Assembly (NCBI GenBank): GCA_964016885.1
Contig: OZ024743.1
Location: 143,592,001 to 143,656,000 of the forward strand
DNA: 64,000 nucleotides
Source: Eledone cirrhosa
Lineage: Eukaryota
Direction of reading: 5' to 3'
Below, piece after piece: positions 7,126 to 60,095 of the stretch. Below the pieces are notes generated by a model. It ran no database searches, was not told where the DNA came from, and saw only the letters and a list, made by a program, of their open reading frames with translations. A program made the translations under genes and the position numbers. The number at the start of each line of letters is the position of its first letter. Within the stretch, counting starts at the first letter, position 1.

Positions 7126-7329
7126 AACAAAGGAATTGTGGTAAGGAACCAGATGGACCATAACGCACAAGAGTACTCAATACTTAGGGTAGTAGAGTGG
7201 GAAATAGGAAAAAGTATGACCCCGACGGCAGAGGTCAAGCCGTTTCGACGGCTATTATATTCCACTTTAGTCCAGAAATAGCCGTCGAAACGGCTTGAGC
7301 TCTACCGTCGGGGTCATACTTTTTCCTAT
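7126..7329 (-). mobile_element. Penelope-like 3' terminus with 53-bp fold-back and partial hammerhead ribozyme, in (TA)n
   Basis: Inverted arms 7204-7256 and 7277-7329 (2 mismatches); GAAA-CGG...CCG-TC (stem III and GUC triplet) at 7287-7309; homologous to 41501-41598. Confidence 0.65.
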
Positions 7330-7371
7330 ATATATATATATATATATATATATATATATATATATATATAT

Positions 7372-7505
7372 GTAGTGGGAGAGAGAATACAAGAGATGGT
7401 TGCTTCCAGAAAAAAAGGGAATAGAATCCATATGCGATATATATTTTTTACTGAGGGAACATTTACACACCGGGACTAATCAGTTTCATCTCAGTTGGGA
7501 ATCAT
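7372..7505 (-). mobile_element. Possible degenerate Penelope-like 3' terminus
   Basis: Minus strand TGATTCCCAACTGAGAT-GAAA-CTGATTAGTCCCGG resembles the ribozyme region at 11381-11418 but the core is damaged; flanked by TA-rich repeats. Confidence 0.35.
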
Positions 7506-7519
7506 TATCATCATCATCA

Positions 7520-8077
7520 TACACACACATATATATATATATATACATACACACACACACACACACACACACATATATATATATATATATATATATATAC
7601 ATATATATACATATATATATATATATATATATATATATATACATATATATACATATATATATATACATATATATATACATATACATATATATATATACAT
7701 ATATATATATACATATATATATATATATACATATATATATAGATATATATATACATATATATATATATATATATATATATATACACATATATATACATAT
7801 ATATATATACATATATATATATACATATATATATATATACACATATATATATATATATATACATATATATATATATATATACATATATATATATATATAT
7901 ATACATATATATATATATATATATACATATATATATATATATATATACATATATATATATATATATATATATATACATATATATACATATATATATATAT
8001 ATATATATATATATATACATATATATATATATATATATATATATATATATATATATATATATATATATATATATATA
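7520..8077. repeat. (TA)n/(TACA) compound microsatellite
   Basis: Seen directly. Confidence 0.95.
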
Positions 8078-8547
8078 GTGTAATTATGACTGTGTATTCC
8101 TCCACGCTTCACAAGAACGTAAACAAATCTAAACCACACCTATGCCACCTACGAATCCAAAGAGAAGCAAACGACAACCATTCTTTCACGATCATATCAT
8201 CACCACTACATATCACACACACACACACACACACACACACACACACACACACACACACACACACACACACACACACACACACACACACACACACACATGT
8301 ATATATTAGACACAACCACCTATATTAATGAGTGCTAAATTTCAACCAAGCGCTTCGCTCCTTTATTCCACGGTACAATCAACCCAAATCACAAAACTCT
8401 ACATGACCCATAAATTAAATCCAAACACATCATTCGAAACTGTACCCTTGTTCTCTCAGCCAAACAACAACCAGCCTGCACTAATTACTGGTATGTGTGT
8501 GTGTAAGTATGTGTGTGTATGTGTGTGTGTGTGTGTGGGGGGGGGGG

Positions 8548-56479: not shown

Positions 56480-56688
56480 CGGCAATATCAGTAGAGGGTC
56501 GGACGCCAACTTTGCAGCATAGAGTTATGGGCCTTTACGGTCCGAGTTCAAATCCCACCGAGGTTAGCTTTGCCTTTCATCCTTACGAGATCGATAAAAT
56601 AAAGCACCAGTAATGTCCTGGAGTCGATTTAAACGACTTTCCCCTCCCCCCAAAATTGCTTACCTTGTGCCTAAAATAGAAACAATCA
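56480..56688 (+). mobile_element. SINE family A, near full length
   Basis: GGCAATATCAGTAGAGGGTCGGACGCC...GAGTTCAAATCCC...GCCTTTCATCCTTACGAGATCGATAAAA...GTGCCTAAAATAGAAACAAT. Confidence 0.8.
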
Positions 56689-57441
56689 TTTTAAATGACG
56701 GGTTTTGGGGGACCGGTTATTGCATTTTAAATTGTGGATTTGTTTTTATCTGTACGATAGCAAAGTTTTATTTTATTTATTTAGCAGGGAAAATTGCAGT
56801 AACCTAAGATATTGAAGCTAGAATGTAAAAAAACATAAATTTTTTTATTTTATTCGCATCCCTTCCTCCTTACTGAACATTTAGCCCCCCCCCCCCCCCT
56901 ACTACTACTACTACTACTACGGGGGAGGTCTGCTGTAAAGAATGGATTTGTGTGGTGGTGACATGTATGTGTGGGAGATACACGTGTAGGTGAAGGTATG
57001 TGTAGGGTGGTGTGGCTAGGCGAGGCCACGTGTGGGTGGTGAGGGCATGTGTGTACGTGTAGAGAAGTATGAATCGGTAGGACAATGATAGTGGCGAGGG
57101 TCGTGTATGTGTGGGCATGTGTAAAGCTGGGGAGGAGACTAATAGTGTTTATGGTAAAGGTGAGGCTGGAGAAGCAGGGGTAGGTGAAGGTGTGTGGATC
57201 GTGTAGGTGAGGGCATGTGGAGTTGTGTGGCGGTAGACACGTGTAGGTATGGGGTTGTGTGTGTATGGGAAGGAGCGAGTAGCGGAGACTGTTATATGAA
57301 GGTGAGGGAATGTGTGAAGCTAGAGAGGCACGTGTATGTAAGGATATGTACGTGACTCGTGTAGGTGAGTGTATGTATGTATGGGTCGTGTTGGTATGTG
57401 TGTAGGTAGAACTGATGGTATTTATGGCGAGGCGGTGAGTA

Positions 57442-57624
57442 GAGGTAAAATTCCGTTATATCGAATACCATTATAACGAATTTTTCACTATAACATTTTT
57501 TCCAATTCCCGAGGTAATAACAAACAAACTCTCGATTTGTTTCGGTCGATCTCGTTATAACAAATGTTTCGTTACAACGAATTATTTTTATATCCGTGAA
57601 TTTCGTTATAACGGAATGTCACTG
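57442..57624. mobile_element. Tigger/pogo-like (Tc1/mariner) MITE
   Basis: Imperfect TIRs ...ATTCCGTTATATCGAA / TTCGTTATAACGGAATGTCACTG, internal CGTTATAAC repeats, TA at both flanks. Confidence 0.6.
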
Positions 57625-59614
57625 TATAAGAGCATGTGTGTAAAGCGAATCGGGTAAGCTCGAGTAGGTTAGACTGTGATAGGTATTAACAGAATAAGTA
57701 CAGCAGCGGACAAATTCTTTGATGTTCTGTGTTTAAATTCCGGCGAAGTCGACTTAGTCTTTTATCCCTTGGGTGTCGATAAAATAACAGTACTAATCAA
57801 ACATTGAGGTTGATATAATCGACTTTCTCCTCCCCGCAAATTGTTGGCCTTGTGCCTAAATTAGAAACAATTTATAGCGAAGTTGTGTATGGGAGATTAA
57901 TAAGACAAGCGGTGGTATTGTTTGTAAAGGTTTATAAGTGTAGGCGTACAGTTGAGGCTCTGTATGTGTGCACAGGTGAGGCTTAGTATGTAGGCGTGCG
58001 TGCACAGGTGTGACTGTGTGTGTGTATATGCACAGGTGTGGCTGTGTGTGTGTATGCACAGGTGTGGCACTGTGTGTGTGCACAGGTGTGGCACTGTGTG
58101 TGTGTGCACAAGTGAGACGCTGCGTGTGTAGATGTGTAGGAGAGGTTTTTTTGTGTGTGTGGATGTGTAGGTGAGGCTCTGTGTTTAGGTTTACTACAGG
58201 TGTAACTGTGATGTAGATTCATGTGTAGGTGGTGCTCCGTGTGTGACGGGGAGGGAAGGAAATAAATAGGTGTATGTATATACGGAGGGTGTGAATGTAG
58301 ACGCGGAGAGGGAATGTCTGGCTGAACCAGTGGTTATATGTATGTGGAAAGGGGTTATATATATGTATGTATGTATGTCTGTTACAAGGGACATGGCTAA
58401 CAAAGGTTGTGTAACAAATAATCTATTATATATAAATGTATGTCACTTATGTAACCCCGTAACGCGTGTGTATATGTGAGCGAGATAGACGGGTGGCAGT
58501 TAATAGTGCGATCTACCGCAGTATCCCGTAGTCTACGCCGTGTAGTGATTATATATGTCATTAATTAATAAATCATTATTCAACTTGTTTTAATCACCCT
58601 GTAGTATAGTTTCTGTAGTTAAGGTAGACGACACGCTGGACTGTAAATGACCAGCTAGACTTCACGCTTAAGTATAAATGACCAGATAGACGGAATGTTG
58701 GACTGTAAATGACTGCATGCTAAAGTGTAAACTACGTAGACCGGCCGCATCGAAGAGACATAACTTTTGGAATTCCCCTCTCCCTCACTTGCTCATGTTT
58801 TTTACTGCAGTTATCAACTTGCAGCTGTATAACTTCAAGCACACCGATTTTCCATCTCTTGGAAGCTCTGCAAAACCCTTGGGCTCATCCCCTTCTATCG
58901 AGCCAAGCCATTGAACAACAAACACAGACATAGCTGAAAGTCCGCTTCACAACCACATGGTTTCAAATTCTGCTGGTTTCACCAATGACTTGTGAGTGAA
59001 ATTTGGTAGGCGGAAACTCTGTAGAATCCTGTTTTATATGGCCTGTTTTATATGGTGGTTAGGGTGTTGGTCTTACGATCATAATGTCGCGGGTTCGAAT
59101 TATGAACTGCATGACACGTCGTTCTTTATTTCACATTGCTGAAAATAATGACCAGCGGTAGCAAGGGGTTAACGTTGGGGTGGACTGGCGTCTTGTCTTG
59201 TACTCAGGATAAGCCTGATGAGCCTCTGGGATTAGTGCTTTTAATATATAAGTCTGTGTTTACTTCTTTTATGTCCTGTGATAGCAGTTCGACGAAAGGA
59301 AATCGGTAAAATAAGTACAAAGCTTAAACAGTAAGCTCTGGGGTCGATATCATCGACTAAATCCCTTGTATGAGGTATTCTAGCATGGCCGCAATCTAAT
59401 GAAACCAGTAAAAGAATACACACACACACGTAGTTTGTTGTGCGGCACTTTGGGCAAAGTATCTATTATAGCCTCGGGTTGACCAATGCCATGTGTTGAA
59501 TTTAGTAGGCGGAAACTGCAGAAGCCCGTCACACACACACAAGGCTGTACTCCAGCATGACCGCAGTTTAATGATTGAAACCAGTGAAAGAAAAGATTAT
59601 ATATATATATATAT

Positions 59615-60095
59615 AACCAAATATTAATATGGTTCATTGATTACTTAATGAATATAGTTTTACAATAGATTAAAAGCACTCTACAAAGTTTTCTGGAGTT
59701 ATTATTATTCAAAATATTAATAAATGTTGACATTTACATCATCAAAATGTTTTATTATATATATTTCGAAGGTACTGTGCTGTTTTTTTCAGTACGTCCT
59801 CGTCAGATAAAATACATGAATTGATGTATGACATACCTCAACGGTCTTGATGGTTCAATTCCAGTAACTGAATGAACCATCAAGACCGTTGAGGTATGTC
59901 ATACATCAATTCATGTATTTTATCTGACGAGGACGTACTGAATGAACCATCAAGACCGTTGAGGTATGTCATACATCAATTCATGTATTTTATCTGACGA
60001 GGACGTACTGAAAAAAAACAGCACAGTACCTTCGAAATATATATAATAAAACATATTTTGATGATGTGAATGTCATCATTTATTAATATTTTGAA
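59615..60095 (-). mobile_element. Penelope-like 3' terminus with an about 150-bp fold-back and a 70-bp tandem duplication, next to (TA)n
   Basis: Left arm 59708-59857; right arm 59873-60095 with 59867-59936 duplicated as 59937-60006; hammerhead on both arms. Confidence 0.75.
59988..60051 (+). ncRNA. Type I minimal hammerhead ribozyme (mirror copy on the - strand at about 59750-59813)
   Basis: TTTTAT / CTGACGA / stem II containing GTACTG...CAGTAC / GAAA / TATATA / TA / ATAAAA (perfect 6-bp stem I). Confidence 0.8.

Follow-up and report, generated by a model that had tools for sequence, protein, structure and literature searches.

Penelope-like elements (PLEs) with a hammerhead ribozyme, an inverted copy, a one-sided tail and a preference for (TA)n microsatellites have been described by Craig et al. 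2021 (PMC8557442), who list Hydra and Naiad families from Octopus, give RWK and DKT motifs, a CxCX5C linker and the lack of CCHH as features of the Hydra clade, and name the formation of the tandem and inverted PLE ends as an open problem. Minimal PLE hammerheads and retrozymes without long terminal repeats (non-LTR retrozymes) are covered by Cervera and de la Pena 2014 (PMC4209133) and bioRxiv 10.64898/2026.07.22.740005, and metazoan PLE hammerheads have been reported as weak cleavers in monomeric form. In vitro, the Anolis Poseidon protein PAc cuts and extends both strands of AT-rich DNA and starts complementary DNA (cDNA) at two internal sites that bound the tail; it mainly copies uncleaved RNA, and ribozyme cleavage is not required (Frangieh et al. 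2024, PMC11167929). Here we analyze a 64,000-nt stretch of the Eledone cirrhosa genome (assembly GCA_964016885.1, contig OZ024743.1, forward-strand positions 143,592,001 to 143,656,000; hereafter the window, with coordinates counted from its first letter), in which five short palindromic inserts share one layout. The layout, noted in an initial sequence-only reading, is real but less surprising than it might seem, both it and the (TA)n targeting being already in Craig et al. 2021. To this we add a conserved hairpin in the tail, a fixed end point of the inverted arm and an asymmetry at the junctions, and we estimate a probability of roughly 0.65 that the palindromes are truncated PLE 3' ends, likely of the Hydra clade, each built when end-joining repair linked two cDNAs, primed separately, in head-to-head orientation.

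The five inserts (i1 to i5), and a sixth copy absent from the sequence-only reading, are the following.

i1, 7127 to 7329, minus strand: inverted arm 7277-7329, 20-nt loop, sense copy and 77-nt tail; 3' half of a hammerhead with predicted cleavage between 7224 and 7223; bulged hairpin 7173-7198; family A.
i2, 11313 to 11507, plus strand: inverted arm 11313-11373, 67-nt tail, hairpin 11446-11466; full type I hammerhead 11373-11425 with predicted cleavage after 11418; family B.
i3, 11535 to 11994, minus strand: perfect 186-bp arms, 87-nt tail, hairpin 11595-11616; hammerhead 11665-11730 (minus) and its mirror 11886-11951 (plus); family C.
i4, 31238 to 31354, minus strand: 17-bp arms without a hammerhead core, 80-nt tail, hairpin 31287-31312; family A.
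i5, 59616 to 60095, minus strand: arms of about 150 bp, 92-nt tail, hairpin 59676-59699; hammerhead 59750-59812 (minus) and its mirror 59988-60051 (plus); related to i3.
Sixth copy, 41501 to 41598, plus strand: 96% identical to i1, hairpin 41526-41551; family A.

A hairpin search run after microsatellite masking paired the arms at 7204-7256/7277-7329 in i1 (53 bp, 2 differences, 20-nt loop), 11313-11373/11380-11440 in i2 (61 bp, 0 differences), 11622-11807/11809-11994 in i3 (186 bp, 0 differences) and 31318-31334/31338-31354 in i4 (17 bp, 0 differences); those of i5, at about 59708-59857 and 59873-60095, match over some 150 bp and the right, inverted one holds a 70-bp tandem duplication, so that the positions and arm lengths first reported for the five inserts were all recovered. 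The copies also represent several diverged, high-copy families, as had been claimed: family A comprises i1, i4 and the 41501-41598 copy (96% and 80-81% identity), i3 and i5 are 72% identical over 116 nt, i2 forms the third family, and the high copy number is borne out by read alignment. The hammerhead, together with the truncated 5' end, head-to-head inverted copy and one-sided tail combined in 5/5 inserts, identifies them as 5'-truncated 3' ends of PLEs, in line with the origin first proposed for them. The sixth copy has neither an inverted arm nor a (TA)n tract.

Read in hammerhead sense, all six copies carry a tail motif whose basal stem of 4 bp is followed by a 2-nt bulge and then by about 4 bp of upper stem. 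The corresponding pattern, itself drawn from these copies, matches the window six times against 0.26 expected. In i1 to i4 the inverted arm ends 5 nt short of the hairpin's basal A (6 nt short of CTC), and in i5 it ends 8 nt short of that base. We then combined the hairpin with the hammerhead GAAAC box in a pattern that, by design, cannot see palindromes without any tail, and examined 120 listed metagenome loci out of about 590 estimated in the collection. Their 121 matches include 15 dropped as chance (coding-like DNA without a hammerhead core) and 106 kept as PLE-type, 72 of which are nonduplicate with 100 nt upstream. An inverted arm is present in 39 of the 72; counting once the nine copies of one amplified derivative leaves 31 independent arms, of which 27 end 4-7 nt before CTCTAC (the window value is 6), 30 end within 2-10 nt and none enters the hairpin or is accompanied by a tail on both sides. 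Furthermore, a target-site-like duplication of at least 9 nt flanks 12 of 15 testable related loci, as compared with 1.9% of mismatched pairs; at the window inserts such duplications are hidden within (TA)n. The nine amplified copies (L014, L033, L048, L068, L071, L072, L099, L101 and L109) share the same junction and flank and represent a palindromic stub amplified within another repeat. Another group of loci (L040, L046, L077, L078, L092, L110, L118 and L018) starts at an ATTAAA-type word 5' of stem I, 28-30 nt before GAAAC, perhaps a preferred 5' end reflecting a transcript start or a drop-off point of the reverse transcriptase (RT).

Within the hairpin, the basal pair is A-U in 6/6 window copies and G-C in 103 of the 106 PLE-type related matches. 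An alignment of 20 distinct sequences has 94.9% of its cells paired and 4 of 8 pairs changed on both sides, with a pairing score that 0 of 500 shuffles equaled, bearing in mind that related sequences can beat such shuffles without structure. Three of the six Hydra consensi in file S7 of Craig et al. 2021 (PMC8557442) also show the hairpin on inspection by eye. Locus L007 places a 707-amino acid (aa) open reading frame (ORF) for an RT-endonuclease (RT-EN) protein, P0003, with RWK, DKT and CxCX5C, beside the same hairpin and hammerhead; 10 related loci match this Hydra-type protein, Pfam recognized none of P0001-P0003, and related-locus hammerheads equal rows of the Hydra table of Craig et al., as for L015 and Penelope-1_NV.

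The junctions are asymmetric in a different sense. Among 27 independent palindromes that could be mapped, the tail-bearing copy extends further 5' in 13, the arm extends further in 8 (by 7-23 nt in 5 of them) and the two are equal in 6. An arm with sequence absent from the tail-bearing copy is not a simple copy of it. At the junctions themselves there is short microhomology or filler, which in part was taken from sequence close by.

In the pathway that we favor, the bulged hairpin, which lies 25-45 nt behind the hammerhead, would be the binding site of the RT-EN protein on its RNA. The protein would nick both strands of TA-rich DNA, for which there is in vitro precedent from another clade (Frangieh 2024) in addition to the target-site duplications of the related loci. 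Of the two nicks, one would prime cDNA synthesis at the far tail end and the other at about 6 nt before the hairpin, the observed end points being putative RT starts. Both cDNAs would be cut short, frequently at the hammerhead's 5' edge, where copies are seen to end, and their ends would be joined via microhomology or filler in what the junction letters suggest is end-joining repair. The outcome would be a palindrome with a one-sided tail, in which the hammerhead is carried along with the 3' end of the parent. The two fixed ends would fit two internal start sites of the Poseidon kind flanking the hairpin; by eye, both the arm end and the tail end tend to be TA-rich, which may aid priming on TA targets. 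More tentatively, and at somewhat less than even odds, we propose that the bulged hairpin, common to cnidarian Hydra-clade elements and E. cirrhosa, is the docking site of the RT-endonuclease and forces asymmetric priming, about 6 nt before the hairpin and at the far tail end, such that every insertion consists of two cDNAs head to head. If true, such docking would explain both the inverted repeats and the one-sided tail of PLEs and would define a minimal mobilizable RNA of about 130 nt.

The preference of the inserts for (TA)n was likewise upheld, as a bias. A TA tract adjoins 8 of 10 insert ends, the exceptions being the right ends of i4 (a short TA/GT repeat) and i5 (poly(A) first); for comparison, only 3.5% of non-TA positions have a TA tract no more than 3 nt away, with the reservation that the inserts were first chosen partly by their TA trait, and the sixth copy is an exception in its location. 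An empty/filled pair is provided by an inverted duplication that spans the region of i2 and i3.

Older inverted duplication, 10384 to 12615: 10384-11000 versus 11162-12615, about 620 bp.

Its left arm holds an uninterrupted, empty (TA)16 at 10848-10879, and in the right arm the matching tract is occupied by i2, i3 and the 3' end of a long interspersed nuclear element (LINE) at 12035-12170. The filled twin of the empty (TA)16 in the other duplication arm is direct evidence that the tract predates the insertion of i2 and i3. In the related loci, (TA)3+ occurs in 27 of 90 3' flanks against a 5.5% background and (TAA)3+ in 14 of 90 against 1.1%; (TA)n is thus an insertion bias and not a strict target. 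The duplication (10350-12615) itself has embedded microsatellites, and only its left end carries an additional ~35 nt; it is laid out like an older and larger palindrome of PLE type and includes a hairpin (10899-10926) as well as, near 10430, a GAGTGC stretch that resembles a tail. A 31-nt piece at 10484-10514, present only in the left arm of the duplication, reproduces the 3' half of the hammerhead of i2 exactly, ends at stem I and is followed by (TA)n. The LINE 3' end at 12035-12170 is 97% identical to a second one at 18988-19123, both are located at (TA)n, and we take them from their translation to be of RTE type. More generally, alternating purine-pyrimidine repeats make up about 22% of the window, and a degenerate (TA)n array of 5.3 kb lies at 47032-52305.

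Independent reads and contigs were aligned to the 1-kb stretch 11200-12200, which includes the RTE end; the reads are reduced-representation data and may stem from few loci. The stretch was matched by 15,053 contigs of one run and by 44,947 of 12.5 million reads of another. In 5312 reads from another sample of the species, family C passes into (TA)n at the arm-end site, as do families B and C in contigs of another species, and the depth of family C drops steeply toward its 5' side. The i2 fold point is crossed by contigs of a second sample and of another species (9 differences in 80 nt), at least 10 other family B joints are found among the matches listed, and many other strand-changing joints occur at contig depths of 25-186 as well as in raw reads of another sample. 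Fold-back joints thus recur in independent contigs and raw reads, and the palindromes are real. Among the matches listed, no contig spans the whole 1-kb stretch and none bridges the exact i3 junction. One further family B joint, 11443>11374, reveals a tandem hammerhead unit of about 77 nt with a short spacer elsewhere in the genome (contigs and 79 raw reads with 17 starts), which is retrozyme-like with an unusually short monomer.

To locate the hammerheads we used a type I descriptor, which gave 5 matches in 3 inserts (plus strand in i2; one per arm in i3 and i5), whereas 30 Markov-shuffled windows averaged 0.4 matches and never had more than 2. This agrees with the three complete cores (i2, i3, i5) and one partial core (i1, 3' half only) read from the sequence; i4, truncated behind the core, has none. 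An Rfam scan of the window returned no hammerhead among the best 150 of 498 matches, and on 11300-12010 it gave one weak RAGATH-1 match (E 0.8) and no useful hammerhead score; the core calls therefore rest on descriptor matching. Rfam matches of microRNA (miRNA) type in the window were dismissed as deriving from hairpins and microsatellites, with none at gathering score among the matches listed. Folding predictions put the penalty for forcing the hammerhead fold in the whole insert at 69 (i2), 106 (i3) and 90 kcal/mol (i5), versus 3.7, 8.9 and 8.5 kcal/mol in their sense copies alone, and as RNA the sense copy of i2 folds no better than shuffles do (z -1). Since the palindrome is head to head, the antisense copy is transcribed first from either side. 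According to these models, read-through transcripts would have their hammerheads locked by the palindrome, and the inserts, once termed self-cleaving cassettes, are unlikely to cleave themselves; they may yield double-stranded RNA (dsRNA) on read-through transcription. The idea that fold-back points lie near the ribozyme is upheld as a frequent pattern, seen in i1, i2, i4 and most related loci; i3 and i5 fold about 80-90 nt upstream of the core. Two family A copies, 41501-41598 and 31238-31340 (the sense copy of i4), both begin at about the predicted cleavage site, as if derived from cleaved RNA; we regard reverse transcription of cleaved RNA as a lead only, with two cases, one blurred by a G run (41501) and one by alignment gaps (i4).

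How far do other explanations account for these observations? A single cDNA might fold back and prime itself, or an antisense template might do so (Arkhipova et al. 2013), with copy-back stopping at the protein-bound hairpin. Self-priming is already a published proposal, and it accommodates an identity between arms (those of i2, i3 and i4 and the inner one of i5) that extends to mirrored, family-rare letters, an i1 junction that seems to use the natural stem II and a family B joint, 11373>11419, that runs through stem I. We nevertheless consider it unlikely, given the 8 of 27 related palindromes whose arm extends further 5' than the tail-bearing copy, several junctions with 0-1 nt of microhomology or with filler, and the in vitro cutting and extension of both strands by an RT-EN protein of another clade. 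Less probable still are nonautonomous units, akin to miniature inverted-repeat transposable elements (MITEs) or short interspersed nuclear elements, that are copied whole with a fixed fold point: the amplified derivative with its nine like copies does behave in this way, and the i2 fold point is bridged in another species, but the three family A copies of the window (i1, i4 and 41501) each have a 5' structure of their own, and the junctions vary among copies both of family B, with its 10 or more other joints, and of related families. 

The sequence-only reading had itself leaned toward cassettes with a regulatory role, self-cleaving or dsRNA-producing. The complete cores in three inserts, the perfect arms of 61-186 bp that would form dsRNA if transcribed through and the tandem 77-nt hammerhead unit elsewhere in the genome speak for such a role; the predicted folding penalties, the loss of the core in i1 and i4, the weak monomer cleavage reported for metazoan PLEs and insertion without cleavage in vitro make it very improbable. 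We give scarcely any credence to fold-back artefacts of assembly or library preparation at microsatellites, unlikely as these are in view of the fixed arm end, the target-site duplications in related loci, the 2 differences between the i1 arms, the strand-changing joints in contigs and raw reads, the i2 fold shared with a second sample and another species, and the same layout in 39 loci of other assemblies; what they would explain is the adjacency of long (TA)n tracts to the palindromes and the lack of a match across the whole 1-kb stretch or the i3 junction.

Joining of two separately primed cDNAs remains our preferred explanation, and several observations weigh against it. The arm-longer junctions could come from later deletion at the palindrome apex, two of the "equal" cases, those of family 4, rest on a poor reference, and the identical arms of i2, i3 and i4 fit single-template fold-back equally. 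Frangieh 2024 found the start site not to differ between strands, whereas the pattern here is one-sided, none of the 31 arms having a second tail; the tails of our inserts, at 67-92 nt, also exceed the published 30-40. As for the hairpin, the search pattern fixes most of its letters, so that 4 of 8 pairs cannot vary. A tblastn search with the Hydra-type protein finds nothing in the window, and no RT gene was found joined to the window's own families. The assignment to the Hydra clade, likely on the basis of the shared motif, is weaker for i3 and i5, which differ in the upper stem and in hammerhead stem III, and one search of viral contigs with the motif specific to these two gave 0 matches.

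The window also holds an endonuclease-coding PLE fragment to which the inserts had been linked.

GIY-YIG element, 40592 to 41392, minus strand: separate 5'-truncated PLE with a C-terminal GIY-YIG ORF at 41036-41392, a stop and a 3' untranslated region (UTR).

Its ORF matches PF01541 (E 4e-06), a relaxed scan places a hammerhead core behind it at 40797-40839 (minus), and the element ends at the TA-rich tract 40486-40591, so that both the hammerhead and the TA-rich end ascribed to it are confirmed. The supposed link to the inserts did not survive comparison: the element has no significant sequence in common with them, lacks the tail hairpin and gives no match to the Hydra-type protein P0003 (E 0.28). 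It is 45-48% identical to two RT-thumb-plus-EN proteins, and in its domain two cysteines lie between the GIY box and the YIG box, with two histidines present as well. A Hydra-type assignment was rejected on the endonuclease, which does not show that clade's lack of CCHH; by eye the element looks Nematis- or Neptune-like and resembles the Nematis rows of Fig. S2. Judged by these sequence comparisons, it is a different PLE family and not the parent of the inserts. Membership in Naiad/Chlamys was discarded as well, canonical cores being present and the EN of the window being C-terminal and followed by a stop and 3' UTR. Fragments of the element's tail recur within (TA)n arrays at 42356-42505 and 42957-43017, the former with the last ~50 nt of the element (40592-40642) attached in inverted orientation. 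Elsewhere, the window contains a LINE (14065-16674) with endonuclease and RT, whose RT ORF also includes a match to a PHD finger, a second RT ORF of 621 aa (42991-44856) and a hairpin with 15-bp arms (40370-40440) that resembles by eye part of the 91-bp tandem unit at 19871-20145.

In the literature searched, to which key older papers and the repeat databases were external, we found no earlier account of the tail hairpin, the fixed arm end, the junction asymmetry or a two-cDNA model, and the portions of it that we drew on contain no Hydra-clade biochemistry. The hairpin and its two fixed end points constitute a small, mutable cis element with exact predictions for an in vitro assay of PLE end formation. 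The stubs are also abundant and can readily pass for MITEs or miRNA precursors; searching for the motif offers a way to annotate them.

Among described systems, the inserts resemble the Hydra clade of Craig et al. (PMC8557442) in the canonical type I hammerhead near the 3' end, the (TA)n preference, the 5' truncation and aquatic invertebrate hosts that include Octopus; one Hydra family is listed with an inverted 5'-truncated copy, and stem III of i2 matches several rows of the Hydra table. They differ in the length of their tails and in the tail hairpin and fixed arm end, of which we found no description in the parts of that paper considered. The inverted pseudo-LTR (pLTR) with optional tail (Arkhipova et al. 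2013, PMC3846280; legend to Fig. 2 of Craig 2021) is alike in its head-to-head 5' copy, one-sided tail, target-site duplication and palindromic junctions; in contrast to that case, the whole insertion here measures 120-480 bp, and we favor two cDNAs over the self-priming of that paper. The minimal PLE hammerheads (PMC4209133; bioRxiv 10.64898/2026.07.22.740005) likewise derive from truncated PLEs, are of type I and are dispersed by the thousands, in some cases with two of them close together on opposite strands, whereas non-LTR retrozymes are tandem direct repeats, unlike the inverted pairs of the window, and find a counterpart only in the tandem family B joint of other copies.

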